Shown here in pieces: positions 287 through 59,984 of a stretch of 64,000 nucleotides of DNA; positions within the stretch are counted from its first letter, which is position 1, and every line of letters begins with the position of its first letter. The notes beneath the pieces were generated by a model. That model was not told the origin of the DNA. It made no database searches and worked only from the letters and a program-made list of their open reading frames with translations. The stretch lies in contig NC_083229.1 of the NCBI RefSeq assembly GCF_032191835.1, positions 43,524,001 to 43,588,000 on the forward strand, given 5' to 3'. A program made the position numbers and the translations under genes. The DNA is from Heteronotia binoei. Lineage: Eukaryota.

Positions 287-1809
287 TCAAGCCTTGTTGT
301 ATTTTGGCTCCCGGTCCTGCTTGTCTCTACGCTCTGGATTCTGCTTGTTGAATCTAGGATTATTGAACCCTTTTCTGAAGGGTTGTCTTGGTTGGTTCCA
401 GGATGATCTCTTGTTATCTGCATAGGATCTTGATCTGGCCAATGTGTGTGAGGAATGTAAGGACTGAGAATAGAAGCTTCTTCTGTCAGTTCTGCAAATG
501 TTCCTTGGCATGGCTTTCTTTTTGTCTTTGGTTTCCACTAAGATCTTATCTAAGGCACTACCAAAGAGCTTTTCTCCTTGAAACGGATACGATATCACGA
601 TTTGTTTGGAATGGTTGTCTGCAGGCCATGCTCTAAGCCAGATGCCTCTTCTGCCTACTGCCCCTGACGCCAGATCTCTGGAACAGAAGGTGAGGGCATC
701 TAGAGAAGCGTTGGCCGTGAACTCTGCTGCTTTAAGTAGTCTGGTGGTTCCCTCCATCAATTTCTTAATATTTTCTGGTAGCAATTGAGAGAGTCTCCTA
801 GCCGAGACTATGGCTGCTCTAGATAGACGATGCAGTACATGCCTTAATTACCACCTCGTGTGATCTTTTTAGGGCTAGGTCAATTTTCTTGTCCCAATTA
901 TCTCTAATGGAACTGTGCCTGTCTTCTGACACCAAACCCGGATTTTGAAGAGCCATCACTGGTGCATCCAGTGGTGCATCCAGTGGTGCATCCTGCATGC
1001 ACTGGTGCATCCTGCAACATTTCGTTTGCAAAAACAGGCAAATCATATAACTTTTTTACAAAGGCAGGAAACTGCCGATTAGAGTTAGGTTTTCCCCATT
1101 CAGCTTTTAATTGTCTCTCAAAGAATTGTGGAAATGGAAAAACCTTGGTAGTGGTGTGTGAGCCTGGGAAAAACTCCCTATCCCCAGTAGTTTTATTCCT
1201 GGGATTGGTATCAGTATTGCGATTCTCCTCCCCAGAGGCAGAATCTTGGAGCGCCAGTGCTGCCATGACCCTGGTTAACAAATACTGATAGTCATCAGCT
1301 TTAAAGCAGCGAACTGACTGCTCTGGGACACAGACATCCTCCACCTCCTCATCTGAAATAAAACTCTCTTGATCTTTGGATTGTGACTCTACATCCGGCT
1401 GATTCTCCTCTGAATCGTCCTCTAATAATCTAGAGTTAGAGATCTCTTTTCTGGCTGCCTTAGTTGGCCAGTTGCGCTCTATGGAAAGATTTTTCTCTGG
1501 GCGCTTTGAGGAGGAAGAAGGAGGGGAAGGAGATCTGGATCCCACTGACCCCATGCCCATAGCCCCTGATTGACAGGCATTAAACATTTCTGCTCTAATT
1601 GTTTGCTGGAGCATAGCCATAAATTCAATAGAAAATGGCCCTTTAGGGTACAGTACATTACCACTTTGTTGTATTAGGGCTGGGTCGACCGTGGAGGCGT
1701 GATCCGATAGGGGTTGGCTTCCTGTATTGTCTCCCACCGGGAGATTGGTAACTGTCCCAAGGGGCAAAGCATAAGACTCCTGGCACCTGTCTGGCGAAAC
1801 ACGCGCCAA
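287..1809 (-). pseudogene. DIRS gag-like ORF1, broken by frameshift and stops
   Basis: ORFs 904-1809, 819-1046 and 287-784 contain vertebrate DIRS gag-like motifs (FPFPQFFERQLKAEWGKP, DAPV..LQ..GLVSED, ASLDAL...RRGIWLRAW...YPFQGEKLFG). Confidence 0.8.
958..1013. repeat. 12-bp tandem repeat (a[c/g]tggtgcatcc) inside DIRS gag
   Basis: Four to five copies of ggtgcatcc are directly visible; they encode DAPL/DAPV repeats and coincide with the gag frameshift. Confidence 0.85.
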
Positions 1810-6978: not shown

Positions 6979-7326
6979 CTTCCAGTGGAAGCTGACCTTG
7001 TACCACCCTATTAGGCATCTTCTTCTCTGATGGTGGTGGAAAGTGTATCAAGTCACAGTTGACCCATAGAGGTCTCATAGGTTTTTCAAGGCAAAAGATG
7101 TTTAGAGTTGGCTTGCCATTGCGTATTTCTGTGTTGTGACCTTGGACTACCTTTAGTGGTGTAGCAAGGGGGCGGGGAGGGTCCATCCCATGTGCAGCTC
7201 AAAGAAGACTCTTGAAAGGGATCCTCAAAGCCAGCCACATGCTTCTATCTGATCGTTTCCCCCCTTTTATTTTAAAGTGCAGTTCTGACTGCAGCCACTA
7301 GGGGTACAGAGAAGTCTGACCATAAA

Positions 7327-7606
7327 ATAAAGTAAAGTTGTCCCCTGTGCAAGCACCAGTCATTTTTTCAACTCTGCTTTCATAACGTTTTCACGGCAGA
7401 CTTTTTACGGTGTGGTTTGCCATTGCCTTCCCCAGTCATCTACACTTTTCCCCCAGCGAGCTGGGTACTCATTTTACCGATGTTGGAAGGACGGAAGGCT
7501 GAATCAACCTGGAGTCGACTACCTAAACCAGCTTCCGCTGGGATTGAACTCAGGTCGTGAGCAGAGGGCTCTGACTGCAGTACTGCAGCTTTACCACTCT
7601 GCGCCA
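7327..7606 (-). mobile_element. Sauria (Squam1)-type tRNA-derived SINE
   Basis: The reverse complement starts TGGCGCAGAGTGG (A box) ... GAGTTCAATCC (B box) and ends in an ACTTT/ACCTTT-type tail. Same family at 23519, 28041 and 42266. Confidence 0.85.
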
Positions 7607-8414: not shown

Positions 8415-9144
8415 CCAATAGTCTAGCCTTTCTCTCTTCCCTTCCTTCCACCCAGCTCAGCCACATTGTGCAAAGCAGAAGTTAGAGTGTTGCGTAGGTT
8501 TACCAGATGCCCTCTTTTTAGAGGACACATCCTCTTTTTCTGATGTCCTTCTTTTGGGCTCTTTTTTTAAAAAAAAATGATTAAATGTCCTCTTTTTGTG
8601 TTGAGGGGCTGAGCCTGTTTTGCCCTATAGTCTCCCAGTGAACAGGGCCGGGCCATCCATTAGGCAAACTAGACATCTGCCTAGAGTGCCAGCAGGGCAG
8701 GGAAATTCAGCTCTCCCTCCCCATGCCCTAGGCAAATCCCTCATTTGACTAAGCGCTTCACTCCCCAGCCTCCTCCTCCCTCCCTTCTCCACACCATTTC
8801 AATGTGGGAAGGAAGAAAAAAGATAAATGACAATATAATATTATAGTGCTTTAACACTATGATGCTATAGCAATTACTGAATTTTTTTTTTAAGAATAAG
8901 CTTTCAAAAAAGCCTACTGGTGATGTGGCATGAAAAAATACTGTAAAAATTGTACCCATGAAAGGCTGATGGCAGGAAAGTTGCAGTAATGTGTATGGAA
9001 TCTTTGCAGCACAGCACAATGCAAACCATTCTTTCTAGATAGTGTATTAATTTGTTTGGACTGTGTTTGGGAAGGATTGTACTGAGGATGGGAAACCTTG
9101 GAAACAGAACAGTTACAAAAATCTCCAAAAATCACTCCAATGTG

Positions 9145-10725
9145 AGGAGGAATAGGGACGTCCATGTTAAATCAAGATTTGATGAGGAGATAAGTCCCAC
9201 CTTCCTGGCTCCCTCCCGGCTCCCCCCTCCCAACTACCAGGGACTGTCAAGGGTGGAGCCATCCCCCAGGGCCTGGAGAGGGGGCTGCTGGGAAGGAGGA
9301 GGAGGCAATATGGCTACTGTTGTTTTTTTATTAGGTGAAAAATTATTTGGTGCAAACTTTATTTTTGGGGGGAGCTGTGCTTTTGTACAGGAGGGGTTTT
9401 GGAAAGTGTGCTTTTGTACGTTGTGGGGAAAATGCTTGGGTGCTTTGAAAACTGTATTTGAAAAGGACTGAAATAACAAATTCCTGGAGATTCTCCTGGT
9501 CTCTCCTGGAGAATGTTTTGCCAGGAGTTCTCTCTTCCTGCAAGTCCCAGGGCTTTCCTCACAAGGAACAGTGCCCTTTTTAAAAAGCAAAGCAGCTGCA
9601 TGTTTTTTTCTGTGATAGAGTTCTCTTTTTGCAAGGAACAGACACCATTTATTTTTAAAGCCTGCACAAAAGCTGAGAGAGACAGCTTTTACCAAGAGAA
9701 ATCCCCCACCCCCTTCCCACTGCCAGCCACAGTCAGCAAACTTTAATCATGCAAGCTCACGTTTCCCTCACACAAGCAGCCCCGAAGACTGCGAAGCCCA
9801 AGAGCAAAAAGTTTTCAGCATGCAAACAGAGTTTTAAGCAATAAAACAAAGTTTAACCATTCTAAACATGCTAAGACAGAGAGAGAGAGGAAAATGATTT
9901 TAGCATACAGTGTTTCAAGTCCCTTTAGAACAGAAGTCCCTTCTGTTAGAACAGAGGGAGAAAGAGACAGAGAGACATCCCCATTGCCCCTACAGCCAGC
10001 CATAGATTGCTAGAGTCATTTTAAAATACAGACACAGACACACAGTTTCCTTCAGAGCTTTAGCACATCCCAGGAAAAAAGCCCCTTCAGCTTCCTAAAG
10101 CAGCAGACCTACTTCCCTGAAAGAGAGAGAGCCCCAGAGAAAGACACACACACACACAGAATGCAATTGCTTACTAACCACAGCTTTTAAAAAGCAAAAA
10201 TGGCTTTTAAAACACAGCCACATTTTTTCCTCCTTGAGATGTGTATTGGAAGGCAGGCAGTGAGCTACTGACTAACAGAGTCAGTTGAACAGCAAATGCC
10301 AGCTGAGGATGGGACTAGACAAGCGGGGCTCCAATCAACAGCTTGCCAGACAGAATTTACCCTGGCTGGAAAGATGGTTCTAGCCATTCAGGAAGTAGGA
10401 AATCACATGGTCCTTTTCAGCCAATGGCAGCTACATCCTTCAGCCAGCATTTCTAATGCTGAAGAGGAATCCTCCCCCTCTCCCTTCATTTGCTGCTGTC
10501 TCTGACTTGTTAAAATAAAAAGCACACAAACTTTATAAATAATAATAAGACAATGGATTTGTATTCTGCCCAACACACAGCTCACAGTCTCCTATAGCGT
10601 CCTCCCATACAACAAACATTCTGTGAGGCAGGTGGGTGTGAGAGAACTCTTTTAAAAGCAGTGCTTTCAAGGACAAGCTCTGTGATAGCCACGACAGCCC
10701 TGACAGGTAGGCTTAGGGGGAGGAG
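9145..10725 (+). repeat. Maverick left terminal inverted repeat (about 1.6 kb)
   Basis: Aligns by eye in blocks with the reverse complement of 20284-21730, e.g. 9560-9690 vs 21190-21320 and 10490-10725 vs 20284-20535. The inner boundary is approximate. Confidence 0.88.
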
Positions 10726-10755
10726 TTGGGGAATCAAACCAAAAATGGGCTCTGA
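10535..10755 (-). mobile_element. Squam3-like SINE remnant embedded in left TIR
   Basis: cccatacaacaaacattctgtgaggcaggtggg...tttcaaggacaagctct...ggggaatcaaacc matches the free SINE copies at 24730-25012 and 59985-60237. Confidence 0.75.
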
Positions 10756-11009
10756 ATGAAACAATTAAAAAAACACACGTTTCACAATTTTAAAAGTTTG
10801 CATAGTGGCTGCTAGGGTGCTTTTTAAAAATAAAAATTAAAGTCTGCATAGAGCTGTGTGGAAAACAGAGCAGGCACAGGGCCGTCTTGGACTGCATAGA
10901 TAAGAATGGGGGGGGGGGGGCAACCACGAGGCTAAAAGGGGGCTTTCAGACAGTTGCATTTTAAACAAGCCTGCAGTTTTCCAGGATTTCTGTGCAACAA
11001 AATTTCAGC

Positions 11010-11761
11010 ATGGATCCCCCAAAGCAGCAGCTCTTTAAGGTGGGTGTCATGCCCATGTTTCAAAATTTTAAATGCAAATGGGTGCCAGATTTCTTTTATT
11101 TCTCAGTCCACTTATATTTTCTGTCTACAGAAAATCACATTGTCTATGCCACAGGACCATTCCTGCTCTCTGCAGAAGACCTATACGTCGCTGAGAATGA
11201 GAGTATGTGCAATGTTGCCATCTTCCAGGCAGAATCAGGAGATCTCCAGTTTTCCTGGAGAAAAAGGGTAGACTTTATGGCATAGGGTTTTTTGATGAGT
11301 TCAAAGGATTAATTTCCTTTCTTTTAACAGTTGAAATGCCAATTTCAGTAGACAGTGCCAGTACCCAGCACGTGGCTTCTATACCTGGCACAGCTGACCA
11401 GCAAGTGACTGTCTGGCCTATTCCAGAACCAGCTGTGAAACATGGTAAGATTCTTAAACAGTTTGGCCATTGTGGGGGTAAAGCCTCATAGGTTATTTTT
11501 AACACAATTGTGGCACTTTTATGCAGAGGTGTTTTTTTTTTTTAAATGAGGAGAATGGGACAAGCAGGGACCTCTAGGCAGACCCTGGAGATCTCCAGTT
11601 TCTCTGGAGAAAAAGGGTAGACTCTATCGCTTTGGGTTCAAAGGATTAATTTCCTTTCTTTTTAACAGTGGAAATGTCAATTTCAGGGTGTAGTGGCAGT
11701 CCCCAGCAATTGGCTTCTATTGTGACAGCCTGGTCTGTTCCAGAACCAGCTGTGGAACCTG
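11010..11761 (+). other. putative spliced gene of unknown function inside the Maverick (exons about 11009-11039/43, 11131-11202, 11331-11444, 11669-11761), truncated by copia
   Basis: Three internal exons have polypyrimidine-ag acceptors and gtatgt/gtaaga donors. Their lengths are 72, 114 and 93 nt, all multiples of 3 and all open in phase 1. Exons 3 and 4 are tandem duplicates. Confidence 0.6.
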
Positions 11762-12164
11762 GTAAGATTTTTAAAAGTTCTTAAACATTTTGGCCATGTT
11801 TTGGGTAAATAGCCAATTTTTAACACAATTCTTGTACTTTTATGTTCTTGTGTGTCTGGTGCAACCTAAGGAGTCAGCCAAAATGCAGGGGGCAAAAATG
11901 CAGGAGAGGAATAAATTAATTTTAGTTAAGAACAGATATGCTGGATGAGGCCTGCATTCTATGTCACATAGTGGGGCCAGGATACTGGCTCCAGAGCAAA
12001 CTCCACATGTTTCTACAATCCCCTTTTGAAGCCTGCCACCACCTCCTGCAGCAGTGAATTCCACAGGTCATTGACTTCTTGTGAGAATGGGAAAAAAGTA
12101 CGTCTTTCTACATCCTGCCACCCCCAGGCTGCGTTTATCCAAGTTATAAAGTCTTTTTTTCATG

Positions 12165-14760
12165 GTGTGATGACTAGGCATCTGGGGCATGCGAGTTTCA
12201 ACACAATAAATAAGACCTTGGCTATCCTAACAGGGGAGATACATATTTCGATTGTAAGATATGCGAACAAGCTAAGTCTAAAGCCTATCCTGTAGCAAAA
12301 AGGAGTAACAGGCTCTCTGAGAGGCCATTGCAGTTAATACACGCAGATGTTATTGGCCCCTACCCCCCTAGCATGTCTAAAAATAAGTTTGCCTTAATAC
12401 TGGTCGACGATAAAAGTCGTTTTGCATGGGTATATGCTATGAAAAATAAATCTGAGGTGTTTACCACATTTAAATACTGGGCAAACAGAGTGCAAAAGCA
12501 TCTGAATTGCAAAATTGGTGCTTTGCAAACCGACATTGGGGCGGGGGGGGGGGATTTATTGGACATCAGTTCAAGTCCTGGCTGAGTGAACAGGGGATTG
12601 AGCATAGAATTGCAAATGTGTCAGCACCAGCTGAAAATGGGGTGGCTGAACGAAAAGGGGGCATACTTCAAACTATGCTCCATGCTATGCTCAAGGATAG
12701 TGACCTGAAAATCACATACTGGTGTGAGGCACTAAAAACCTCATGCTTTGTTGTAAACAGACTATGGACACAGGCCATAAATGAGATACCCTATAAAGTG
12801 TTATATGGTAAAAATCCAAGTCTAGAGTTCTTGAGAATTTTTGGCACAAAAGCCTAGGTCAACATACTGGTGAATAAAAGGAGAAAGGGTGGAGCCAGAG
12901 CTAAGAAATTATTATTTCTGAGCTACCAGAACAGTATGAAATCTTATAGGTTTGCAGACAAGCATAACATGCTAAGCTTTAGTAGCTCTGCATCGTTTTG
13001 TGAGGATCAAAATTGGCAAAGGGTTCATGCGAATGAAATGCCTACAACTGCAGTGTTACCTCTATCTCAGCAGGTTGAGGAGGGGAGTGTAACTATAAAG
13101 CAAGAAGCATCCTCACCAAGAGCAAGACAGAGGTCACAGTCCTCTGAAAGTTCAGAGAGTGCAAAACAGGAAATAAGAGTGTCTAGCAGAGTCAATAAAG
13201 GCGTGCCTCCAGAGAGGAACGGGTTTAGTACGGCTATAAACTATGTGTATTCTAAAGAGCCACAAAACTATGAAGAAGTGCTAGCTTTAGACCGTGAGGA
13301 ACAGGATGGTTGGCTGAGTGCAATGCAGAAAGAATCTGACTCACTGAAAGAAAACAATGTATTCACACCTGCGGTTCTACCAGTGGGTAAAACAGTCATC
13401 AGCTGTAAGTGGCTGTATAAACTGAAACGACTGACTGATGGGTCTTTACAGAAAAAGGCGAGGCTGGTAGCTAGAGGGTTTACAAAGCTAGAGGGCAGAG
13501 ATTTTGACGAAAGTTTTGCACCTACTGTAAGAATTGAAACACTGAAAGCAACGCTGTGTAAAGCAGGTGTGAGTGGCATGACAGTACATCATTTTGATGT
13601 TACAACCGCATATTTAAATGCCACCATAAAGGAGGAATTATATCTACAGCCAATTCCTGGGTTCCTTAATACAAATGATTTGCCTGTCCTAAAAATAAAC
13701 AGAGCCTTGTATGGTCTTAGGCAGTCAGCAAATGAATGGAACAAATGTTTAAGTAAAGCACTGGAGAGTATAGGATTTAATCAAAGTGTGGCTGACCTTT
13801 GTTTATTCAGTCATGAAGTATATGGACAAGAATGTTACATTTTATTCCATGTAGATAATTTGTGTTTCCTATGTAAAAGCAATAAGCAACTTGAGTGGTT
13901 TGTGAAAGAAGCTCAAGCTCTGTTTAAAATCAAACACTTGGGGGAGATACAGCACTATCTCGGCATGGAGATTATTAAGAGTGCAGAAGGCCATTACCAA
14001 TTAAGCCAGGAAGAGAAAATTCAAAAGCTCTTAAAAAATGTATGGGATGTCTGAGTCAAAGGTCGTGCAGAGACCTATGACAACTGGTTATATAAAAGAA
14101 GAGGATGATACTGTTCTAGAAAATAAACAAATGTATCAGTCCTTAGTGGGATCACTATTATATTTGGCATGCTGGACCAGACCCGATATTTGTATGGCCA
14201 TACATCTGCTAAGTCAAAAATGTGCAGAGCCAAGGCAAGGGGACTGGATTGCAGCCAAACGGGTCCTTAGGTACCTGAAAGGTACAGCAGGACACAAATT
14301 AATGAGCACTGACAGTGAACAAGTGCTAATGGCTGACAGTGATGCAAGTTGGGGGGAAAGACCAGACGGGAGGTCTACCTCTGGAAGTGCAATATTCATG
14401 TATGGTGCACTAATTAGTTGGAAAGCGCTGAAACAAACGCATATTTCAATGAGTAGCTGTGAAGCAGAATACTCTGCAATAAGTGATACTATCATCCAAA
14501 TTGAATGGTTAAGACAGCTAATGAGGGATCTGGGAATACAAGTTCCAACACCGGTGGAGGTGTATTGTGATAGCACGGCTGCTCAGCATCTAGCAGTTGA
14601 CAGTGGAATAAAAAGCAGGAGTAAGCACATAAATATCCATTACCAAAATGTTAGAGAAGCTGTAAATAAATCTTGTGGTAATGTGGCAGATGTATTTACA
14701 AAGAATGTAGCAGTGGACAGATTCTTAAAGCTGAGAGAAATGTTGAAGCTAGTGGTCTGA
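12165..14760 (+). pseudogene. copia pol (integrase-RT-RNase H), frameshifted
   Basis: LIHADVIGP...LVDDKSRF, ENGVAERK, KWLYKLK...KARLVARGF, HHFDVTTAYLNA, ALYGLRQSANEW, HVDN (canonical YVDD altered), RPDI, DSDASW...STSG, SSCEAEY, YCDSTAA, RSKHINI. Confidence 0.93.
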
Positions 14761-14774
14761 GACATGAGGAGGGG

Positions 14775-15133
14775 TGTCAGAGTATACAGTCATCAGACCA
14801 CAGCTAGAGCTGCAATGATCTACATGACAGTAGATGATCTAACTGACAGTGGACAGCTGGCAGTCCTCCAGATTGCATCAGCTAGGATGATGTAAGGGGA
14901 AAGAGTATAATGACTCAGCACTAAGCTGATTGGATAATGAACTGTGCTGAACTGTATAAATGTAATGTAGCCCAGTGCTACATGTGGTGGATGGATGGTG
15001 GTTGTATATGCGGAGCACTTTGTTAGTCTGTGTAAATATCTGTAAATAAATAGTGTATATAGTTTGCCTAACCGCAGCTGTGTGCAGACTTTATTCCTTC
15101 AAGTCTCAAGCGACCACACACTAAACACCAACA
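14775..15133 (+). repeat. copia 3' LTR (359 bp) preceded by polypurine tract GAGGAGGGG (14766-14774)
   Basis: TGTCAG start immediately after the PPT and CCAACA end. TATAAA and an AATAAA-like signal lie inside. Confidence 0.8.
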
Positions 15134-17940
15134 ATAAACAGTCACACAGAGGAGGGTGACTATGTTCAATTGAGGCTTGAGGGAGGAGGACTACAAAATC
15201 CCATATTTTCATTTTAAAAAAGAAAAAATCCGCTAATTGCTTCTGAGTTTCTGGACTTTGTAGTTATTATGCTCCAAAGTAACAGGGAGGTTCTGAACAA
15301 TGATACTCTGTGTTTAATCGTGACCATATCCAAATCTCCCAGGGGTGGTGCACATCAGAAAATGTCTAAAACCACCATGAAAAAGTCTATTCCTTACAGT
15401 TTAATCATTGAAAAAAAGAGGCGCTTTCTGGTAGATTATACCTATTATGACAACAACCTCTGTTTTGCGGCGGGGCTCATGGGTGTTATGAAAAGAGGAG
15501 AAAGTCCTACTGATGCAGAAGTCTTAGAGGCCACTAAGAAATTACACGCTGATCAGAAACAAGTGGGTCTCAATGACATATCAGTTGTTGAGGAGCATTT
15601 AAAAGTGAACATCCGGGTGGTGCTGTGTTCAGAGAATGGGTGGAACATATTTAAAACACAGTCCCTGAAATATCCTGAGACCCATTTTATGCTTTTGTAT
15701 CAAGATCATTATCTCGGCGTATTGAATGTTAAGTCTTTTACAGGATCTAGGGGTTTTTACAGGAATTGGCACACCCTGTACAATCATAAGCACAATTGTT
15801 CTTTATTTTGCAGAATGTGTGGAACCTCTGAATGTAAAAACATCAGCGGTACCCCTCAGAAATGTCCCAACTGCTATTTCTACTGTAGCAAAGAATTTTG
15901 CTTAAAACTACACGGGAAGCTGGCAGCCAAGGATGAAATTCCCTGTCCCTCCAGGGTTTGATGTAAAAAATGCTAGTCTTATGTCAACATGAACCACCAA
16001 TATAGAGTGCAGGAAGAGGGTCTGCAGACAATGTTGTGGGGCGCTGGAGGAAGGTGAAGATTTTCATGACATGTGTTACTTAGAGCCTCTGAAAGAGCCA
16101 CCTGTTTCAGCAAAGTACATATTTTATGATTTTGAATGTACTCAAGATGGTGGAGAGCATAAGCCCAACTATGTTTTTGCTAAAGCTTTTGACCAAGACA
16201 AAGAATAGCACATAGCCGGTCAAAGTTGGGAATTTAAGGGTGAAACGTGTGTGTATGAGTTTGTGAAGACAATTACTTCCATGAAGCAGTTTAGAGAAAC
16301 GACGTTTATTATTCATAACTCCAAGGCCTACAATTCTTTATCGTTAAGCAGCTGATTGAAGAGAGGATGGATCCCAAGCTAGTTGCCATAGGGGGAAAGC
16401 TGATGTGTGTGAGTATAAAAACCCTGGACATAAAGTTCATCGACTCTCTGAACCACCTCCCCATGGCCCTCTTTAAGCTACCGAAAGCGCTAGGATTTTC
16501 CCAGAGTAAAGGGTATTTTCCTCATTTTTTCAACACTGAGGAAAATCAGGCTTATGTGGGACCTTTACCAGAGCCCAAATACTATGGGGTAGACCAGATG
16601 ATGCCCAAAGAAAGGGAAGATTTCTTAAAATGGCATGAGGAAAACTGCTTTAATATCCTTGATCTCCAAAAAGAACCAGCTTTTTATTGCCAGCAAGATG
16701 TGAACATTTTGGAACAAGCTTGCACTTTATACCGTTCTGAGATTATGAACATGACATCTCAGGACACTCTCTCCATAGATCCCCTATAATATCTTACGCT
16801 AGCGGGGGTCTGTTTAGCCATGTACAGGTTTAATTTTCTGCAGCCTCTCTCTGTGGCCATTCCCCCTCCTGATGGTTATGACAGGCAAACCAAGAGGTTT
16901 TCATCTTCTTCAATTCAGTGGCTCTGCTACTTAGAGCACTCTGAAAAGATCCATATTCACCATGCACTGAAGGGGGGTGAGTTTAAGGTGGGGAAGTATT
17001 CCCTAGATGGGTATGCAGTGGTGGATGGTAAAAGAACAGCCTTCAAATTTATCGGTTGCTTCTGGCATGACTGCACCCAATGCTATGATCCTTTCAAAAT
17101 CAACAGGGCAACTGGGAAACCATTTCAATACCTTTACTCCACCACCAGGCAGAGGAGTAATGACCTTAAAAGAATGGGGTTTGAAGTCAGGAGCATCTGG
17201 GAACATGAGTGGAATCACCTAAAAAACACAGATGAGTCTGTGAAAACCTTTCTTAAATTAGCTCAGTTTCCTGAGCCTCTGGTTCCTAGAGATGCCCTGT
17301 TTGGGGGGCGCACTAACACCATTACCCTCTACTACAAAGTGGAGGAAGGGGAGGAGATCCACTACTACGATTTCACCAGCCTGTACCCCTTTGTGAATGC
17401 TAGGAAAACATACCCTCTAGGCCACTCCGAGATCATCCAGAATAATTTTGCGCCTCTGACAGAATATTTTAGATTGGCTAACATCAAAGTCTATCCCCCG
17501 AGAGGACTTTTCTACCCAGTGTTGCCTTCCAAAGTGGATGGGAAACTGTTTTTTACATTGTGCAGGACCTGTGCCGAAACAAAACAGCAGGAAACCTGCA
17601 CCCATACCGATGAGGAGAGGTCTCTAGTGGGCACGTGGGTTACAGCAGAATTGCAGAGGGCGGTGGACAGAGGTTATCCAATTGTGAAAATCTTCAAGGT
17701 CTGGCATTTCAAGAACAAATCCAATCAGTTGTTTGTGAAATACATTAAAAGACATTTTAGACAGAAACAGGAATCTTCAGGATACCCTGACTGGTGTGTG
17801 ACAGAGGCTAATAAAGAGCAATACATTGCAGATTTTTATAAAGGGGGGGGGGTTTCCTTCTCCGCCCGAGCATGTACACCCCCACTCGCAAAGCGTCAGA
17901 TCGCTAAACTGTTTCTCAATTCTCTGTGGAGTAAATTTGA
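15134..17940 (+). pseudogene. Maverick protein-primed DNA polymerase B (pPolB), disrupted and truncated at both ends
   Basis: N-terminal LQSN...PRGG region, Cys-rich segment, ExoI FYDFEC, IHNSKAY, KFIDSLNHLPMAL, KGYFPHFFN, ExoIII YCQQDVNIL, Vsr-like FIGCFWH..IWEHEW, PRDALFGGRT, motif A YDFTSLYP, motif B KLFLNSLW. Motif C (YxDTDS) is absent. Confidence 0.93.
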
Positions 17941-18023
17941 AATCCAGGGAGAGCATAACCAGCCTGAGAATGGTAATAACTTCTAAACATTGCGGGGTCC
18001 TCATAATCTTTCACAATCACCAT
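17937..18023 (-). pseudogene. N-terminal stub of small Maverick core-protein-like ORF
   Basis: MVIVKDYEDPAMFRSYYHSQAGYALPGFQ has the YYxxQxG..G motif of the small ORF that follows penton in Mavericks/adintoviruses. It is cut by the deletion junction. Confidence 0.55.
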
Positions 18024-18711
18024 TTTTTCCACGGTCGTAAGTGCAACCTTACGATGACCTTGCCGTAATGGAATGACACGTGTTGGTTCTGTGCAGATCG
18101 TTTCAATATGCTGCTTGTTGACGGGAATGTGGTGGGGCTCATCATAGATGACTGTGATAAAATCGTGAGTTTTCCCTCTTATTGGGACACAGTGCAGAAG
18201 GGGCGCTGCAGTGTCCCCTACCAGCTGGTGTTCTATGATATCCATATATAGGTACAGAGAATTAAATCCTTTGGTAATATCCGTGGCATGGTGAATGTTT
18301 TTGAGTGGGGTGTTAAGGGGCGTCCCCAGCAGCAGCGCTACTTGGTCACGCATAATGAAGTGTGTAACATTCAGGCTGACAAATCTAGTTTTCCCTGATG
18401 TTTGGTCATAAAGGAAACGCACATCGAGTGGTGTATCGGGATGTTTCCGTACAGCTGTGTGCATGGTATCTAATATATGGCAAACGTCTTCATAATAACC
18501 ATGCTTCACTTGGAATTCATTTCTAGTAGTCTTGGTGCAGATTTGGAAATCTGAGGCTTACTGATAGTGTACCAGGTGTAGGGGTACTGAATTTCCACCA
18601 ACCCCACTTCCCCTTCAAATCCAAAGGTTTAAACAAGCACACTGTGAAAGCTGAACTGGTATTTTCAGGAAATAGGTCCTTAGAAGCGTTGTAAAACCCA
18701 TCATCATCCAT
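18017..18711 (-). pseudogene. Maverick PZ / minor capsid (penton)-like gene, frameshifted
   Basis: MDDDGFY..NASKDLFPENTSSAFTV.L.KPLDLKGKW / LVEIQYPYTW / KHGYY / SLYLYMDIIEHQLVGDTAAPLL / VSFHYGKVIVRLHLRP, joined across frames. Confidence 0.8.
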
Positions 18712-19830
18712 CCCGTCCACTAATGTCTTCAGCGGGAACCCAGCTGTTAAATTTGGGTGGCCACCCCCTCCACTTCACTAAGAACTGCTTCTGTTTCTTG
18801 TTTGTTCGGGTTTTTATAATTTTCTCTATTTTGTATGTTCTGTCTTTCCAGCGAGTCACTTTTTGCAACGCCTCTGGATAAAACCCTCCCAGGATCGGTT
18901 CACCATCAAAATCTGCCAGGTGGTGCATGGGCCTCTTGCCCCTTCCGCCCACCTTTTCTATAATAAAGATTTCTTTGGTGAAATTCTGTTCATAACCTTT
19001 CTCAAAAGTTCCCTTTGTTCTAGAAACCCTCACACGGTCCCCTTTTCTAAATAAAACTCTTGTTTCTTTTTTGGGGGGGCCCCAGGACTGCACCGTACAC
19101 CCGTCTCCACACAGTAAGCATGTTAGAGGGCTTGACATCAACAGGCCGTGCCTGAATAGTTTTGTGATAGCTGTGGTTATAGCTCTTGACCAGGTCCTGC
19201 AACACATCCATATACTTAAAAGTGTTATTGGCGGTAAAAATACCTCCACATCTTGGTCTTTAAAGTTCTGTTAAATCTCTCCACCACAGAGGCCTTAACT
19301 TCATTGTTGGTGACAAAATGGTGAACTCTATGCTGTTTTAACAGGGCAGCCATTTTTTTTCAGAAACTCTTTGCCCCTGTCCATTTGTAGCTTTTGAGGG
19401 ACCCTCTCTGACCCCCTAAAAATGCTTTTAAAAGCGGATGCCACCTCTGCCCCTCCTTTACTTTTAGAGGCACAGCCCATGTGTATTTAGACAGGATGTC
19501 TATCACCGTTAGAATGTATTTGTAGCCCCTGTTGTACTTGGAATACTCCTTCATATCAACGAGGTCCCCTTGCCATTGTTCATCAAAATCACCCACAATT
19601 ACCTTGTTTCTTTTGAAATGCACCCTGGCCGGTTTATGCAGGGCATAAGCATCTTGATCATTCAGCCACTCTTTCACCTCTCTTCTGCTCAAACTGTGCC
19701 CCCTCTTAGAGGCGGCCTGAAAGAGAGCTTCGATGCCCCCAAAGCTTCCAGCCTCTCCAGGGGTATAATAAATCTCATTTAAAATATCCCAGGTGTGAGC
19801 TATGACACTTTGGTCTCTTTTGCTACAATG
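18704..19830 (-). pseudogene. Maverick retroviral-like c-integrase with C-terminal chromodomain, frameshifted
   Basis: EIYY..G.AGSFGG, QDAYALHKPAR, QWQGDLVDM...YKYILTVIDILSKY.WAVPLK, FRKGDRVRVS...FEKGYEQNFT.EIF, YKIEKII...FLVKWRGWPPKFNSWVPAEDI. Confidence 0.92.
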
Positions 19831-19887
19831 AGAGTATTTTTATTAGAATGTCAATATACAGATAACAGAGAAACCCCCCCCCCCCCT

Positions 19888-20120
19888 TCACTCTGGCTTT
19901 TTCTGGTTTTCATCCTCTGACTCCTTTGCCTGCACAGACTGTATTTCTTCATGACCTTTCACGACCGTGGGCCCATCTGTCTCCACAGGGATCATTTTTT
20001 CACCAACTGCTTCTTCTATGCACAGAACCCAACAGCAATAGAAGAGCTGAACACTTTCCTCTTTCATTTTTACCGGGGGCTGCAGATTCATTGGCACACT
20101 TAAATGTTTCTGGGACACTC
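19888..20120 (-). other. possible acidic ORF / terminal exon(s) between right TIR and integrase
   Basis: The open frame ends EEAVGEK...QAKESEDENQKKPE*. Acceptor ttctgtgcatag at 20016. AATAAA on the minus strand at 19839-19844. Confidence 0.4.
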
Positions 20121-20283
20121 CTGAGAAGACCAGGTGCACCTAGGTCTATCTTGCAGGGTCTGACCCCAAAGATTTTTTTTACTGAATTTTAAAAACATGC
20201 TGTTTTTCATTAAGCCCCACACAACTGTGAGTTTTCAGGTTTGGGGATACCCCCCAGCACCCTAAAAACAATACCACAAGGTT

Positions 20284-20490
20284 CTTCTCCCCCTGAGCCT
20301 ACCTGCCAGGGTTGTTGTGGCTATCATAGAGCTTGTCCTTGAAAGGACTGCTTTTAGGAGAGCTCTCTCACACCCACCTGCCTCACAGAGTGTTTGTTGT
20401 GGGGGAAGACACTATGGGAGACTGTGAGCCACTCTTAGACTCTGTGTGGTGGGCACAATATAAATCCATTGTCTTATTATTGTTTATAAA
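20284..20490 (+). mobile_element. Squam3-like SINE remnant embedded in right TIR
   Basis: Mirror image of 10535-10725 (ttgtccttgaaaggactgc...cccacctgcctcacagagtgtttgttgtggggg...tataaatcca). Confidence 0.75.
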
Positions 20491-21730
20491 GTTTGTGTGC
20501 TTTTTATTTTAACAAGTCAGAGACAGCAGCAAACAAAGGGGGTGGGGTTCTATGCAAGAAAAATGCAGGCTGAAGGGTAGCTCCCATAGGGTGAAAAGGA
20601 TCATGTGATTCCCTGCTTTCTGATTGGCTAAAGCTTCTTTCCAGTTGTTAGATGTGAGTAAAGTCCGTCTGGTAAGCAACTCTGATTGGCCCCTGGCTTC
20701 ATAGTCACCTCCATGGCTGTAGCGGGGTGTTCAACTTACTCTGTTAGAGTCAGTAGCTCCCTGCCTGCCTGGGATATGCATTGCTCAAAGGAAATTCATT
20801 TAGGAAAAAAGTGTCTGTTTTGAAAGTTGTTTTGTTTTTTAAAAGTGGGCCTGGTAAATTTCTCTACTTTTAGGAACGGGACATGCTTAATGCTTAAACT
20901 TTGCTCTGTCTGTGAGAGGGGGGAAGAGAGGATCTCTCTCCCCCTGCTTTTAGGAAGCTGAAGCGGAACAGCGGGGCTTTGGGTGGACTTTCAGCTTTCC
21001 TGGTGTGCATAGCTCATTCTCTGAAGGAAACCGTGTGTCTATGTCTCTGCTTAAACTGCATGGCTGCTGCTTAAACTTTTAAAAGGACACTCTTCCTTAC
21101 AAGGGTTTATGGATTATTTTCTTACCCATCTGTGTCTGCTTGCTGGGGGCTTGTTTTTGCTGTCTGTGGCTGGCAGTGGGAAGGGGGGGGTAAAAGCTGT
21201 CTCTCTCAGCTTTTGTGCAGGCTTTAAAAAATAAATGGTGTCTGTTCCTTGCAAAAAAAGAACTCTCCCACAGGAAAACATGCATCTGCTTTGCTTTTTA
21301 AAAATGATACTGTTCCTTGTGGAAGAACCGCTTATCATGGCTGCTGGAAGCCCCTGCAAATTTTCTCCAGGTGAAGCCTGGAGAATCTCCAGGAATTTGT
21401 GGTTTCAGCTCCCTCCTTTTCAAATAGTACTGCAAAAATATTTCAAAAGCACAAGTCTGCACCCAAGCATTTCCCCTGTATAATAAACCTTTTCATTTTC
21501 CAATGCCCCACTGTACAAATGCACAGCATATAAAAAAATACAGTTTGCACCAAACAATTTCTGTATTAAAAACAACAGTAGCCATATTGCCTTCTTCCCA
21601 GAAGTCCAGCCCCAGGGGGATGGCTCCACCCCTGACAGTTCCAGGTGGGAAGGGGGAGCCAGGAAGGCGGGACTTCCAGTCAGACCCATCAAATCTTTGA
21701 TTTGACATGTGGTAGCCCCCTATTCCTCCT
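20284..21730 (-). repeat. Maverick right terminal inverted repeat (about 1.45 kb)
   Basis: Reverse complement of the left TIR, with substitutions and indels. Confidence 0.88.
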
Positions 21731-23103
21731 AGTGTGGAACCCAAGGCAAAGAAAAATCTTGGTGCAGAAGCAGCCATTTGCAGATTTCATCTATGTCTTC
21801 AAAAGGCCTTGCTATATTTCTGGAAGGCCTCTGGCCTGTGACTCTGAATTAGTCTTACTAAGTGCAACAATGTTGCTCCAAATAACTGGGTCTGAGCTTT
21901 GCAGCCTAATTTTGAGCCCTGAAACAATCCATTCACTGCATTCAATTATTTGGCAGTGGCAGAACTGAAAGGCATCTATCTGTAAATAGTTATCTTGAAT
22001 CAAAAAGACGGCAATCTAGAGAGGACCATTTTTAAAAAATACAAAGGAAAACAGAGAGTGGGGAATTTGTCTAAAGCCCCTAAAGTAACAGTATCCTTGG
22101 AGTATTAGGTTTGGGGAATGTATGACTATTTGTCCTAGGTTGAGGATGCTATAGGCTTTTAAGGACTCTGATGACTTTGGAGCTAAAAGGGCATCAGAAC
22201 CTTATTCATTACCCCCATTTGAACTCTGGTATCATGCAGTAAGTAACATTAGGATTGAGAAGCATAGCCAAATACTTCTTTCCGGTGCTATACCATTCTG
22301 ATACAAGGCAACATAGGCAACTTCCTGCTCCTCTAGTTCTGAGGCCCGTAATTGCACTGCAGCACTAGACTTATTTCTGAGGTTCAGAGGTAAGGAAACA
22401 GGGAACTACTGGTCATCTAGTCCAAAATCTCAGAAGAATCTTATTACTGAACCACTTATCCTGTTTATTTTATTTATTTCAGTTTGCTAGGCTGCCCTTC
22501 CCTGCAAGCTTCCCTGCAAGCAGCACATCAAAACCAAATGCATACACATAAAATTAAAATAACATTAAATACCTTACAATAACTCATCCAAACAAACAAT
22601 ATTAAATCCTATATTCAAGATGACAGTTATATCAGTATCCTGTCCATGCAATTCCTTGTGGGTCTCTACTTGTTATTACTGCTACCATTTCTTTTATACA
22701 CTGTTAAATTGTGAATGTGACAACCATTTCAACTTGTTTTTTTAAAATCTTTTACACCCTTATAGATTCAATATAAAGTCTGTACATATTTTTGTAACAT
22801 ATTAAAATATCTAGCAACTGGGGTGGGATACAAGTCTTTGTAAATAAATAACAGCAAAAGAAATGACACACTCCTAGATTTTTAGTATAGTTCCGGGTGC
22901 CTGTCCATCTGCCCAACATATGTTAGGGAAATTAAGTGCCCCACCTGATAGGGTTACACTTCCAATGACAAGGACTGAAAGCACTGCCTTGAAATCTCTA
23001 ATCTTCAGATAAGGTATCTTGATGACACAGTGCTGCAAGCATCTGTCTAATTGCTGTCCAGGGGAAAAAATGCAAAAGGACAGCCCCAAGGCTCCCAGAG
23101 GGC

Positions 23104-23518: not shown

Positions 23519-23834
23519 AAAGGAAAGGAAAGGTCTTCTGTGCAAGCACCAGTTGTTTCCAACTCTGGGGTGATGTTGCTTTCACAATGTTTTGACGGCA
23601 GACTTTTTATGGGGTGGTTTGCCATTGCCTTCCCCAGTCATCTACACTCCCCCCCCCCCCCCCCGCCCAGCAAGTTGGGTACTCATTTTACTGACCTCGG
23701 AAGGATGGAAGGCTGAGGCAACCTCAAGCTGGCTATCCGAAAACAACCCAGCTTCCACTGGAAATCGAACTCAGGTCGTGAGCAGAGCTTTGGACTGCAG
23801 TACTGCAGCTTTAACACTCTGTTCCATGGGGCTC
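23519..23834 (-). mobile_element. Sauria (Squam1)-type SINE
   Basis: Same family as 7327-7606. Confidence 0.85.
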
Positions 23835-24729: not shown

Positions 24730-25012
24730 AAGAAGAAGATGATGATATTGGATTTATATCCCGCCCTGCACTCCGAAGAGTCTCAGAGCGGCTCACAATC
24801 TCCTTTACCTTCCTCCCCCACAACAGACACCCTGTGAGGTGGGTGGGGCTGGAGAGGGCTCTCACAGCAGCTGCCCTTTCAAGGACAACCTCTGCCAGAG
24901 CTATGGCTGACCCAAGGCCATGCAAGCAGGTGCAAGTGGAGGAGTGGGGAATCAAACCCAGTTCTACCCAGATAAGAGTCCGCACATTTAACCACTACTC
25001 CAAACTGGCTCT
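24730..25012 (-). mobile_element. Squam3-like tRNA-derived SINE, full length
   Basis: The reverse complement begins AGAGCCAGTTTGGAGTAGTGG...GGTTTGATTCCC and ends in a tct/tca microsatellite tail. Confidence 0.85.
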
Positions 25013-26480: not shown

Positions 26481-28040
26481 TGCATTTCAGGCAGCGGCTT
26501 TCTCCTTGTTCTTAGTTAAAAATCCATCTTGCGGCTGGGTAGGGATGCAGGGTTGGTTTGAACTGCACATGAAATGCAAAATTGACTGTAAAGTCTAACA
26601 TTTATGCTAGTGCTTACCAAGAAGGCAGGATGAATTTCTAAATAAGACTCGACAAGGCTCAGATTGCCTTCTTGCTGACCTGGAAGCACCCCCGTTCCTA
26701 GATGCCTGTGGGTTGGTTGATTCTGGTTGGAAGGCACTCTGCATGTGCTCCAATAAACTTTAGTTTATTAGTGTCTCATATGATCCAAACAGCTTTTGGT
26801 GTAAGGGTGATTGTCCCTTTTCATTCTGGCCTGGTGCTTGCCCCTGTGAATGATGCATCTTACTGTCCTCGAGATGTAAATCTACTTTGCCTTTTGCTGA
26901 AACTTTGTGGTTGGCTATCAAAGTCAATTTGGGTGGTAAAAGACTAGGACAGGCTCAGTCCTCCCTGTAATATGGGATAAGAAGGGTCTGAATGCCTGGT
27001 GGATTCTTAGGCCTCTTGACAAGCCAGGCCTAATATTAGCTGCAATTTAGACAAACCTCTTTGAGGTTCCAAAATAGTAGATCGTGATAAGAAGGGTCAT
27101 GCTACTGGCAATTGTGTTGAGGCTCTGATTTGAACAGAAGTTAAAAAAAATTAGTAAAGTGTTTTGAAACTGTCAAGCAGACTTGAAACAGCCAACTCAT
27201 AATGTTCAATTAACATGTTAGGACTCAAAAGGTAATTTGCTGTTTCAATTAGAAGTTATGTTAAATCCAGTTGTGGTTAAACTCAAGTTGTGTTAAAGGA
27301 AGCAGAGTGGATTGATTTTTTAAAAAAGTGGTTTAAATCCTTGATTTGCATCAATTTTTCCATCTTTGAAGTGACGCAGACTGTTTCAGGGGGATAGCTG
27401 TCTTAGTTTATAGTAGCAGAACAAAATTCAAGACCAGTAGTAGTACTTACAGACCAATAACGTTTTTCAGGGGATAAGCTTTCCTGAGTTTCATTACAGT
27501 ACTCAGGTTAATCTAAGCACTAACTCATGTTCATCCTACAACTAAATAAAGCAGTTACACTACCTAGGTGGGTATACAGCTTTCCAGTGTTGCTTTATGA
27601 TAGATTCTGCTCCGTGTCTTATATTAATCTCTTTTCCAGATTCCTCCCCAGAAACATGAAGTAACTAAAAACCTAAAATTTTTGCTCATTGCAGCTGACG
27701 AGCCTTTCTTTGTACATGTCTTTGTTTAGAGATAACTCAGGGCACAGGACTTTCAAGAACAAGGACTGGTTGTTTATTTTCACAGGATAAAAGGAAAATG
27801 TCCTAGAGAGTAAATCCGAAGCTGGAGAATGAAACAAGCAGCAAAGTTCAGGTTCTCAGTGTGAAAATGTGAGGGCAAAAGATCACCAAAGTCAGTAGAG
27901 GAAACAAGCATAATAAACAGGATGGTATCTGGAGACAGAGCCCAGCCCCTAGTGCCAGTCATGACTTACCAACCCTTAACCCCGAGTATCAGACCCATCA
28001 TGAAAATACAGACCATGAACAATTGTGCTACATGTAATAA

Positions 28041-28160
28041 TAAAGGTAAAGGTAGTCCCCTGTGCAAGCACCAGTTGGTTTCGACTCTGGGGTGACGTTG
28101 CTTTCACAACGTTTTCACGGCAGACTTTTTACAGGGTGGTTTGCCATTGCCTACCCCAGT
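28041..28160 (-). mobile_element. Sauria-type SINE, 5'-truncated
   Basis: taaaggtaaaggtagtcccctgtgcaagcacc tail and body. Confidence 0.8.
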
Positions 28161-31100
28161 AATAATACTTGACCTCTAAACAGTATTTTCCCCAAGGATC
28201 TTTATTCTCTTTAGAAGCAGACTTTCAGTGTGTTTGACAGGGCATTGCTAATTTGGTTTTGAGAGATTATATGTGTTTCTGCATCTCCTATTCTGATTTA
28301 ATTTTAACCAGGTTACTTAAAATGATAGCAATTTATTTAAAATTTTAGTTTATATTTTAAAATGTTATGGGGTGGTTACTTCTGCCACTTCCCCCTTGTT
28401 TGTAGCTATCCTGCTTCAGGTTGCCAACTACAGCTTGGGAAATGTCTGGAGATTTGGGGGTGGAGCCCTGGTGACAGTGGGGTTTGGTGATGGGAGGGAC
28501 CTCAGTGAGGTATAATGCCATAGTGTCCACCCTCCAAAACAACCATTTCCTCCAAAAGAACTGATCTCTGTAGTCTGGAGATCAGGTGATCCAGAGGAGT
28601 TAGCTACCATGTATCAGACAAAGAGAGCTGTGTTTCACAAAAGCTTATGCTATAATAAAATTTGATAGTCTTAAAGGTGCTACACTCTTTACTGTTTTGG
28701 AGATCAGCTGTGATTCTGTCCAGGGTCCACCTGGAGACTGGCAATGCTAATTCCTGTTGGTATGTATTAGGACACAGAGGGAACCTGTGGCCTGCAACAG
28801 AACTCCAGCTGAGGGAAATGAAGTTACCCATACAACCTTCAACCAATGAAGATGAACAAAACCATTTTAGGCCTTTAGTAAGAGATGGATATAGAAAATA
28901 AATATTGGCTGTGCAAGCCAGCAAAATTTAAGTACTTTTAAATTCTTTTAAACTCAGTGAGGGAGAGTTGGATATATGCTTAAAGCTTTCCGATTGAAAT
29001 ATGTGAGACTTAAAAGTACTTAACTTTGGTTGGGATCTTGGTAATTTGACAGGTCAAATAATCAAAAGCTTTATTATTTATTATGGAAGCAATGAACCAA
29101 CTTAATTTTAAGTCGAAAGTGCATAAAATTTAGGCACACAAAGTATACACAAAATGAGTAAAGAGTATCTGTGAAATGAGATATCAGCTGTACGAAACAG
29201 TGATGACAGTCCTCCAGGGATAGTAACTTCTTTGTACACATAGCCATGCTGATCTAGCAGATTCATGTGTAATGAGTGTGCAGTGCACAGAAGGCCTTCC
29301 CAACTCATGTCAATAGGAGAGATGTTTTGCATAGTCAGGTGAACATGCTGCTCTGGCAGACAAGTAGGGAAACCTGAGCAAATGTGAATTCCTTAGAGGC
29401 AGCAAAGCTTTGCAAATTGAGTTAGCTTTGTGTGCACAGTTGCACAACCACAGATTGGCAAACTCTGGTTTGTGGGTTCCCCTTTGAACTATTCTAATCC
29501 AGTTTCAAACCATGGTTAGCTGGTTTTGATGTAACAGCAAATTTATGGTTTGTGTGAAGCTGGAAGAAGAACATACATGCAAGTGGATTAGTGTTGTGTC
29601 TGAACCATCCCTGCAGCTGGCCAGGGTCATCCCATGAGGTTTGTGGGAAAGCACAGATTTGATTCAAAGCCTGGCTACTCCCAAGCTCACCATCTCTACA
29701 CTGGGTGGGACTGTTTTCTAGCTCTCCTGGTTTAACACTAACTCCAGGACTGGAGTTGTTCTGCTTTCAGTTGCCTGATGTAACTCCTGCCTGAAGGCCT
29801 TATGAGTGAGCTGACTTTATGTGCAACTTTCAGCCTGTATGGTTTTCCAACAGTCCTGAAAATAGAAGCTGTTTTCTTGCTAGACAATAGCCTCTTTGTA
29901 CATTTTGGAAATATTAAATTATTGATCTACATTGCTAATTATATACAAAATAAAAACTCTGAAATGTGTTACTAGTGACCACAGGTTTGTTTAGATTTTT
30001 TGCTTTTACAAAAACTCAAAATGAAACAAATGAAGCTTTTAGAAATTTCTGCTCACCCATACCGAAGCTCTGTGATCAAGGCCACATTTTCTGTAGTAAT
30101 TTCAAATTCTCTAAGTCGTGAATGTTTCCAGTGGCCTTGATTGCAGAAGTCTTCTCTTTGTGCGCCCCAGTAATGAGATTGCTAATTACTTTAATGGATG
30201 TGTGTTGGTGTCTGCATACAGATGCCAATCTGGGTTCAGTCAAGTATCCTTTTCTAGTGCTGCAGTTAGTGTAATGGGGTTTGTCTTGTCATAAGAAAGG
30301 GCTTGTCTGAATGTGTGTTTTATGCAGACAAAGAGACCACTGAAAATCATGCATCTTCCTGCATTTTAGTGTTCCTTTGTATGTTATGAGGTAAGATAAT
30401 AAATGGATAGGGGCTGACTTTTAACCAGTGGTACTCACTTCATGAGTCCCAGACAGCCCTATTTGCAGTTATCATCATCCAAACTTCCATCCTTGCCAAG
30501 AGGCCTGCACCTCAGACAAGTTCACACTTCACCCATTCCTTTGGAAGTGCCTGTTTCAAGGTGAGAACTACTAGCTTACCAAGCAAGGGTCCTGCCCATT
30601 TTCCTGAAACATGGCGGCAGGTGCCACAATGGGGAGCAGTGTTCAGAAGAGCCACAACTACATGTCCAAGAGTCACATGCAACTCCCAAGCAACTGAGTA
30701 TCATTGCTCTTAACTATCCACAGCTGCAGCAAGTGGCAGAGAATGGAAACTGTACCTTCATGTGATAATGGTTTCAGTACATTAGTAAATTATATTAAAA
30801 ATGATTCAGCAATATCCAGCTAAGATACAAGAATCTACAAAGCATACAGGATTGTGAAGAACAGCTGAGCCCCTACAAGGAAAGTTATCAAATATTTATA
30901 TAGAGTGTAAATAATAGTTCTGCATAAAAAATGTAAAGTTTAATATTAAAGAAACTGTGAAATTATGAGGGCAATAGGAGATTATTTTACTTCTGTGGAA
31001 GAGGTAAAACTACAGGGTATACTGGTCTCTAGGCAGCCTGCCAAGCAGTGGAGCTGATGCTTATTTACAATTGCCGAATTGAGTGATTTTCTTGGTTTTC

Positions 31101-34186: not shown

Positions 34187-34402
34187 AGAGCCAGTGTGGT
34201 ATAGCAGTTAGACTGTTGGAGACTCTAAGTCAAAAACTCTGCTCTGTTGTGGAAGCTCACTGGGTGACCAGCCACACACTCTCAGCCTAATCTACTTGAC
34301 AGGGTTGTTGTGAAGATAAAATGGAAGAAAAAGAAATGATGTAAGTTGCTTTGAGTCCCCATTGGGGGAAAAAAAGCACAATATAAATGAAGTAAATAAA
34401 TA
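34187..34402 (+). mobile_element. Squam3-like SINE (older subfamily)
   Basis: agagccagtgtggtatagcagttag...tctcagcctaatctac...cagggttgttgtg...aataaata tail. Confidence 0.7.
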
Positions 34403-59880: not shown

Positions 59881-59984
59881 ATTTTATTTTATTATTGCAC
59901 TAACCCCAAATAATTTGTTGCCAACAAATGACAGGCTTTCTTTCCAGTTTCTGCTTAAACACTCAAGCATATATTTTGAAGAAT

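Follow-up and report, generated by a model that had tools for sequence, protein, structure and literature searches.

Both terminal inverted repeats (TIRs) of a defective Maverick/Polinton element in the gecko Heteronotia binoei end inwardly in mirrored remnants of a host short interspersed element (SINE), and the two remnants have a single origin. The element occupies positions 9145 to 21730 of a 64,000-nucleotide stretch of DNA (NCBI RefSeq assembly GCF_032191835.1, contig NC_083229.1, positions 43,524,001 to 43,588,000 of the forward strand), referred to here as the window. The SINE was probably aboard a replicating Maverick lineage before this copy integrated, and the inverted arms are a mosaic in identity, with the SINE among their best-matching parts. 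All conclusions on the SINE-bearing Maverick rest on one locus, which is a lead and not a rule. The element, its arms, the SINE remnants and the host copies used for comparison were as follows:

9145-21730, no strand assigned: full extent of the Maverick/Polinton copy, internally deleted, from a single integration (13-bp ends, target-site duplication (TSD), pPolB and integrase within)
9139-9144, plus strand: left copy of the 6-bp TSD, matching 21731-21736 at five of six bases
21731-21736, plus strand: right copy of the 6-bp TSD, matching the left copy at five of six bases
9145-10725, plus strand: left inverted arm, an imperfect TIR whose identity to the right arm is mosaic (inverted homology)
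20284-21730, minus strand: right inverted arm (inverted homology with the left arm)
10535-10753, minus strand: left Squam3B3-type SINE remnant (blastn, profile search and by-eye comparison with the consensuses shown in PMC7983390, supplement 1)
20284-20487, plus strand: right Squam3B3-type SINE remnant, beginning within the SINE (blastn, profile search)
10475-10534, plus strand: mirrored non-SINE flank adjoining the SINE tail, pairing with 20488-20547 (56 of 60 identical, no gap)
10691-10725, minus strand: block after box B unlike host B3-type copies and like the CORE stretch of Squam3A-type copies (counterpart 20284-20318)
24737-25012, minus strand: free host Squam3B3-type SINE outside the element, comparator (blastn, profile)
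36715-36950, plus strand, and 59975-60240, minus strand: further free host SINE comparators outside the element (blastn, profile)

Thirteen identical bases (AGGAGG...) open both ends of the element, at 9145 on the plus strand and 21730 on the minus strand, and the 6-mers flanking these ends match at five of six positions (chance 0.005); therefore both arms belong to one integration. The arms were 1581 bp (left) and 1447 bp (right) long, about 1.5 kb, and the end motif AGGAGG//CCTCCT, i.e., (AGG)2//(CCT)2, was at 9145-9150 and 21725-21730. The agreement of the ends, the TSD and the enclosed pPolB and chromo-integrase supports identification of the arms as Maverick TIRs. Altogether, the Maverick features present were pPolB, an rve-chromo integrase, imperfect TIRs with a short-repeat AG end, and a 6-bp TSD (five of six). 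By its pPolB, integrase, TIRs and TSD the element is a defective Maverick; with five stops, six frameshifts, a copia insertion and an internal deletion in place of eight intact core open reading frames (ORFs), it is not an intact one.

A first-pass annotation of the window had described a SINE remnant mirrored at the inner end of both TIRs together with a mirrored non-SINE flank. Both are real: the limits of the remnants were refined to 10535-10753 and 20284-20487, and the 46-nt flank that it had quoted is exact in both arms, with exactly one occurrence per strand (10489-10534 and 20488-20533). Two ungapped inverted pairs cover the region, namely 10580-10725/20284-20429 (146 nt, 89% identity), the longest of the 30 inverted pairs in the window, and 10475-10580/20442-20547 (106 nt, 92%), the fourth longest; their sole separator is a 13-bp deletion private to the left remnant. 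The host SINE comparison set consisted of the three full free copies within the window, and a profile of these copies matched 20318-20474 (plus strand, E 4e-29) and 10740-10549 (minus strand, E 1e-26). Identity of the remnants to host SINE by blastn was 77% and 70%.

The left remnant comprised an ATT tail, the body, box B (10728-10740) and, at 10741-10753, what is probably left of the head; box A was deleted from it, and the right remnant was without box A and without box B. Compared by eye, the host copies and both arm remnants agree with gekkotan Squam3B/B3 consensuses in box B and in the B3-type insert, which is only partly shown in the source (PMC7983390, supplement 1). The remnants carry the L2-derived 3' end, and their simple-repeat tail is ATT-type, not CTT. 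Judged from these matches, the remnants are Squam3B/B3-derived. About 35 bp after box B were replaced in both arms by the CORE-like block. The right version of this block matched best to an A-type copy at 34292-34311, a score reached by 0 of 60 shuffles; the left version alone was not significant (37 of 60 shuffles).

The SINE is the inner edge of the inverted repeat, the inverted homology stopping inside it at 10725/20284. Inward of these positions no homology above chance was found (86-187 of 300 shuffles scored as well), and an apparent signal in a wider region (9-20 of 300 shuffles) was rejected as a 16-bp stretch at a G-run. No TSD was seen by eye around the arm SINE; Squam3 rarely has one. 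An ORF across the antisense SINE met an early stop in both arms (by eye), and Rfam and ARAGORN gave no match in the arms. A tandem array of SINE monomers as in the sSat3 satellite was looked for in the arms, where no tandem repeat was present and just one short CORE-like duplicate was found; identity with sSat3 (as described in the accessible part of PMC10702118) was rejected on this ground.

The 3' junction of the two remnants is the same to the nucleotide. Of 112 informative columns in the SINE body (those where the host copies agree), 16 showed the same non-host base in both arms, one of them CpG-type, with 1.4-2.5 shared derived sites expected under independent decay (p<=4e-9). Tail columns were dropped, as several 3'-end states of the arms also occur in a host fragment at 44755-44808; with the tail included, the count was 20 of 122. 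Arm-private differences in the body numbered seven left-only and four right-only, and a tree united the two arms by a stem of 0.235, with terminal branches of 0.075 and 0.029. Two independent insertions, one per arm, would account for the differing 5' ends, of which the left reaches 10753 and the right starts at 20284; with the same 3' junction, the same rearranged block and the excess of shared sites, this explanation is extremely improbable and close to refuted. The earlier claim of one capture in place of two insertions is thereby borne out. The left arm, where box B and the head remnant survive, was probably the donor, with the SINE passing from left to right.

Distances between arms and host copies (0.27-0.40, Kimura two-parameter) exceeded those among host copies (0.09-0.18) and between the arms (0.12). 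Using the disabled genes of the element as a clock, five stops and six frameshifts in 3933 aligned coding bp gave 2.9-3.3% (0.9-7.8%) decay per lineage; this estimate replaced a pPolB-only stop clock of 3.6-5.1%. The probability of observing five or fewer stops was 0.009 at 8% decay and 0.001 at 10%. Across the SINE and its flank, 24 of 251 positions were mismatched (transitions to transversions, ts:tv, 19:5) with one gap. This difference is what decay after integration would give if the two copies were alike when the element integrated, and the large arm-host distance set against about 3% gene decay implies that most of the SINE divergence predates integration of the 9145-21730 copy. The SINE was thus probably aboard the replicating lineage before that event. 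The first-pass annotation had proposed that the element still replicated after capturing the SINE, and this proposal gains indirect support from the 27-40% distance to host copies as compared with about 3% (1-8%) gene decay. An older element in which the SINE block alone was converted later was also considered and is disfavoured by the stop count.

Several points weigh against early residence of the SINE. The stop clock is based on five events, two of which directly precede a frameshift, and assumes no selection after integration. The comparison covers one locus and three full host copies, and part of the stem could belong to an unsampled SINE sub-subfamily. The host SINE 3' fragment at 44755-44808 (minus strand) has several 3'-end states in common with the arms, and the shared states CACAGA and TGTTTGT are also those of the lacertid Squam3B consensus (by eye). 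The stem showed no significantly distinct ts:tv (10:10 vs 131:64, p 0.14). In dinoflagellate Maverick-like elements, most introners arrived after integration, as reported in the accessible part of PMC11957031. As a separate observation, the fragment at 44755-44808 adjoins a 113-bp direct repeat with 38075-38187 (94% identity).

These points bear on an alternative in which the SINE came from an unsampled divergent sub-subfamily, inserted after integration and was copied across by chromosomal gene conversion, the element never having replicated with it. Besides the tail-side states of the 44755-44808 fragment, such a course would suit the structural diversity of gecko Squam3 (accessible part of PMC10702118), the usual case elsewhere (accessible part of PMC11957031) and the copia insertion, by which the 9145-21730 copy did gather transposable elements (TEs). 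With decay of at most about 8%, however, the source gene must lie 15-20% from the window host copies; most shared states are not in the published B/B3 consensuses where these are visible (by eye); and promoter loss, block replacement and conversion must all be squeezed into a short time. Insertion after integration is accordingly judged unlikely, and residence of the SINE in the replicating lineage is retained as the probable course.

Comparison of the arms block by block, under two gap settings, showed that they are mosaic in identity. Two blocks on either side of this question were:

9560-9740, plus strand: second well-matched arm block, pairing with 21156-21321 (6.1% mismatch, three gaps, 165 columns)
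10251-10474, plus strand: diverged block directly outside the SINE, pairing with 20548-20770 (19-23% mismatch, 7-9 gaps)

The SINE block (10475-10725) had 9.6% mismatch and one gap, which places it with the closest-matching stretches of the two arms. From the terminus inward, block 9145-9320 had 8.5-13.5% mismatch and 8-10 gaps, block 9321-9559 had 15-26% and 8-15 gaps, and block 9741-10250 was barely alignable. Block 10251-10474 (block C), which is homopolymer-poor (0.04), differed from the SINE block by Fisher tests under both settings (p 0.003 and 0.0002), and outer blocks A and C together held 39 of 40 gaps (p 2e-4). Five host repeat pairs compared under the same settings had 11-16% mismatch and 3-9 gaps. 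Two findings weaken the contrast between the SINE block and the outer arm: mismatch in A1 and A3 was not significantly different from that of the SINE block, and in A2 it was significantly different only under the stricter setting; and the high homopolymer content of block A (0.20) inflates its gap count. The 9560-9740/21156-21321 pair includes a 42-bp exact match, either a conversion tract or a functional site.

In adenovirus work, panhandle repair starts at an internal match and proceeds outward until the terminus is copied. Repair of this kind would equalise everything outward of the SINE, and since the outer arm is less alike, a panhandle fits poorly as the last equalising step. Panhandle or strand-displacement replication, to which the first-pass annotation had attributed the mirror copies, is therefore not sustained as the last equaliser of the remnants, given 19-23% mismatch and 7-9 gaps in block 10251-10474 as compared with 9.6% and one gap in the SINE block. 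TIR homogenisation, its other proposal, survives if patch-wise and fails as equalisation of the whole arm. In its strict form the panhandle account would have the whole arm regenerated and the arms identical at integration, all differences being later. The SINE block and block 9560-9740 do fit neutral decay and 13 bp are identical at both termini, but mismatch is 15-26%, with many indels, in blocks lying between the SINE and the terminus, 9741-10250 is barely alignable, and the genes permit a difference of 2-16% between the arms and no more than 3.3 frameshifts per kb in each lineage. We regard strict regeneration as very unlikely. Local conversion or template switching of about 250 bp, with a second patch at 9560-9740, is a moderately well favoured mechanism for the last equalising step. 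Early panhandle copying may have been followed by later patch conversion.

Taken as a whole, a course of single capture, residence in a replicating lineage, patch exchange, integration and decay appears reasonably probable, and it is in line with the way inserts in poxvirus inverted terminal repeats (ITRs) become duplicated at the other end (accessible part of PMC9578705). A Squam3B3-type SINE would have arrived in a single event, at the inner edge of one arm, presumably the left, of an ancestral Maverick able to replicate, either by L2-driven retrotransposition or within captured host DNA. The fragment would then have evolved for long within the Maverick lineage, losing its RNA polymerase III (pol III) promoter and gaining the rearranged block. 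Shortly before or around integration, gene conversion or a template switch would have acted locally between the arms on a tract of about 250 bp that stopped within the SINE, making these parts of the ends alike, the remaining arm parts not being equalised at that time. The molecule would have integrated with a 6-bp TSD and undergone neutral decay of about 3-5%, and the copia insertion and internal deletions would have occurred at undated points of this history.

Between the arms, the following genes and insertions were identified:

11131-11761, plus strand: exon-like units forming two diverged tandem copies within the left accessory region (71% direct repeat 11224-11523/11573-11844; splice-like motifs)
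12160-15133, plus strand: Ty1/copia remnant inserted in pPolB, left edge approximate (RVT_2 E 1e-50, weak rve; long terminal repeat (LTR) ends)
15134-17938, plus strand: broken pPolB with five stops and two frameshifts, N- and C-terminus gone (DNA_pol_B_2; 70-71% to Paroedura picta proteins P0002/P0003)
18050-18700, minus strand: broken minor-capsid-like gene, then the deletion junction with pPolB (atlas features; P0125, 54%; gene order as in the accessible part of PMC8097293)
18707-19803, minus strand: broken rve-chromo integrase with four frameshifts (Pfam Chromo E 1e-14, weak rve; P0121)

The order from left to right was exon-like accessory DNA, copia, pPolB (plus strand), minor-capsid-like gene (minus strand) and rve-chromo integrase (minus strand). 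The integrase was 62-75% identical to the rve+chromo protein P0121, and the minor-capsid-like gene had an atlas feature match of 0.95 to Sputnik minor capsid V18/19 clusters. The pPolB adjoins the minus-strand module at about 17940, the centre of the two-module Maverick plan having been deleted, and no space is left there for major capsid, protease and ATPase genes, for which no search by name was made. The closest pPolB (P0001, 70%) is found on an ENA contig of 16,744 bp, roughly the length of a complete Maverick, and the nearest relatives with a species name are the Paroedura picta proteins (70-71%). The 5' part of the copia element was removed together with the pPolB N-terminus by a deletion, leaving only the 3' LTR at about 14775-15133, and dating via copia LTRs was ruled out because a single LTR remains. 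Exon-like units with splice-like borders occurred in both accessory regions, at 11131-11844 (plus strand) and about 19888-20120 (minus strand), and a 300-bp unit of the left region was tandemly duplicated at 71%. These units possibly represent putative spliced accessory genes.

Box A was absent from both arms and box B was present in the left only, so no competent SINE head remained. With box A missing, the fragment should not be transcribed by pol III and would thus be dead cargo. The first-pass suggestion that Mavericks could carry SINEs as cargo holds for such a dead fragment and not for a functional SINE. Inward-pointing CCAAT motifs, which may be promoter elements, were at 10331 and 10421 in the left arm and at 20689 and 20627 in the right, and TATAAA stood at the SINE junction in both arms (10534/20488). 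Donor-like sites in the antisense SINE matched 8/9 at 10629/20380 and 7/9 at 10704/20305; host SINE copies had 7/9 at the same place, and the window background was 1.6-1.8 per kb. From these motifs one could suppose a gecko Maverick family that long replicated with the SINE in both ends, the antisense SINE giving both inward modules a putative first exon and splice donor in common and the arms being alike only in patches. We consider this doubtful. If true, this would be a case of a virus-like element domesticating a host retroposon, with Maverick TIRs kept by local conversion, not by regeneration from the terminus.

The same motifs enter a further explanation, that the element is a recombinant of two Maverick subfamilies, one per arm, with an old SINE capture and a SINE block held alike by purifying selection as an exapted 5' untranslated region or first exon. 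Patchy conservation resembles selection, the inward CCAAT, TATAAA and donor-like sites and the exon-like units are found in both arms, and gene swaps among Polinton lineages have been reported (accessible part of PMC10748475). This recombinant, however, demands near-zero divergence before integration over 250 bp in a SINE that had earlier drifted 23%, and the donor-like sites are met by the 7/9 sites of host SINEs at the same place and by the background frequency. It is rather unlikely, and local exchange between the arms of one lineage remains the preferred account of the alike SINE blocks.

The element resembles vertebrate Mavericks, as described in the accessible part of PMC8097293, in its inward pPolB and integrase modules on opposite strands, the integrase followed by the minor-capsid-like gene, the TIRs and the 6-bp TSD. 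It is also degraded, as are 96% of the loci in that study. The end motif (AGG)2//(CCT)2 is not among the three motifs listed in the accessible part of PMC8097293, and the arms (1447-1581 bp) are at or above the maximum TIR length listed there, 1447 bp. Unlike those described, the arms here have a mosaic identity and a host SINE as their inner limit, and the word SINE does not occur in the main text of PMC8097293. Squam3B3 is the main variant in both of the Gekkonidae studied in PMC7983390 (accessible part), and the arm remnants share with it the box B context, B3-type insert, CORE-derived stretch, L2-type 3' end and lack of a TSD; they differ from it in having no box A, an ATT and not a CTT tail, and an extra CORE-like block. 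The remnants are 27-40% from the free copies, compared with 74-81% mean similarity within B3 in the same source.

Host retroposons in other mobile or viral DNA offer partial parallels. Poxviruses, among them taterapox virus with its SINE, likewise combine a host retroposon in a linear dsDNA virus with ITR inserts duplicated at the other end (accessible part of PMC9578705). The carrier here differs in being integrating and protein-primed, with arms that are not identical and evidence that is fossil. Poxvirus replication starts at hairpin ends, and the ITRs stay identical. Ngaro elements in EMALEs (PMC8547959) and introners (PMC11957031) are also host TEs nested in Polinton-like elements and proposed as vehicles; in the accessible parts of these sources, they are internal, the introners mostly post-integration, and no mirrored copies in TIRs attest to replication after the capture. 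The hobo/hAT and Helitron families of Anolis are squamate DNA transposons that still moved with SINE pieces, but they belong to other element classes and carry internal cargo, not in both TIRs, and Anolis Polintons are described without such cargo (accessible part of PMC3014272).

Among the literature and relatives searched, no report was found of a SINE in both Maverick TIRs or of TIR conversion, subscription papers and Repbase/Dfam entries being outside coverage. Viral contigs yielded 0 loci for the pPolB piece and 0 for the SINE-arm pattern, with five remote loci at 28-36%. Metagenome contigs yielded 268 relatives, and among the best 80 of 268 the top identity was 41%. The arms matched 0 of 85 relative loci from viral and metagenome contigs by blastn.

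A SINE of bounded age in both arms is a natural tracer of Maverick end copying. To our knowledge, copying of vertebrate Maverick ends has not been directly observed so far. The tracer indicates that replication of a Maverick lineage took place after the origin of a gecko-specific SINE, and the identity mosaic of the arms tests TIR regeneration from the terminus against patch conversion. With this locus, Mavericks join poxviruses and cut-and-paste transposons as carriers of SINE sequence; the cargo here is non-functional and is thus no demonstration of SINE transfer between hosts.

Several other features were observed in the window. Rfam detected a tRNA-Thr gene with a GGT anticodon at 61906-61978 (minus strand, 57 bits). 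This anticodon is unusual for eukaryotes. Near it, 61772-61862 forms a 91-bp inverted pair with 49341-49431 (99% identity), and short palindromic elements resembling miniature inverted-repeat transposable elements were at 42837-43122, 49458-49622 and 59787-59873. Pfam matches included LAP2alpha at 287-844 (minus strand, E 3e-7) and Tmemb_55A at 50272-50754 (plus strand, E 2e-10), the latter probably a host gene exon. A second SINE-like repeat family, which supplied neutral controls, was represented at 7326-7604, 23519-23821, 28039-28163 and 42264-42557.

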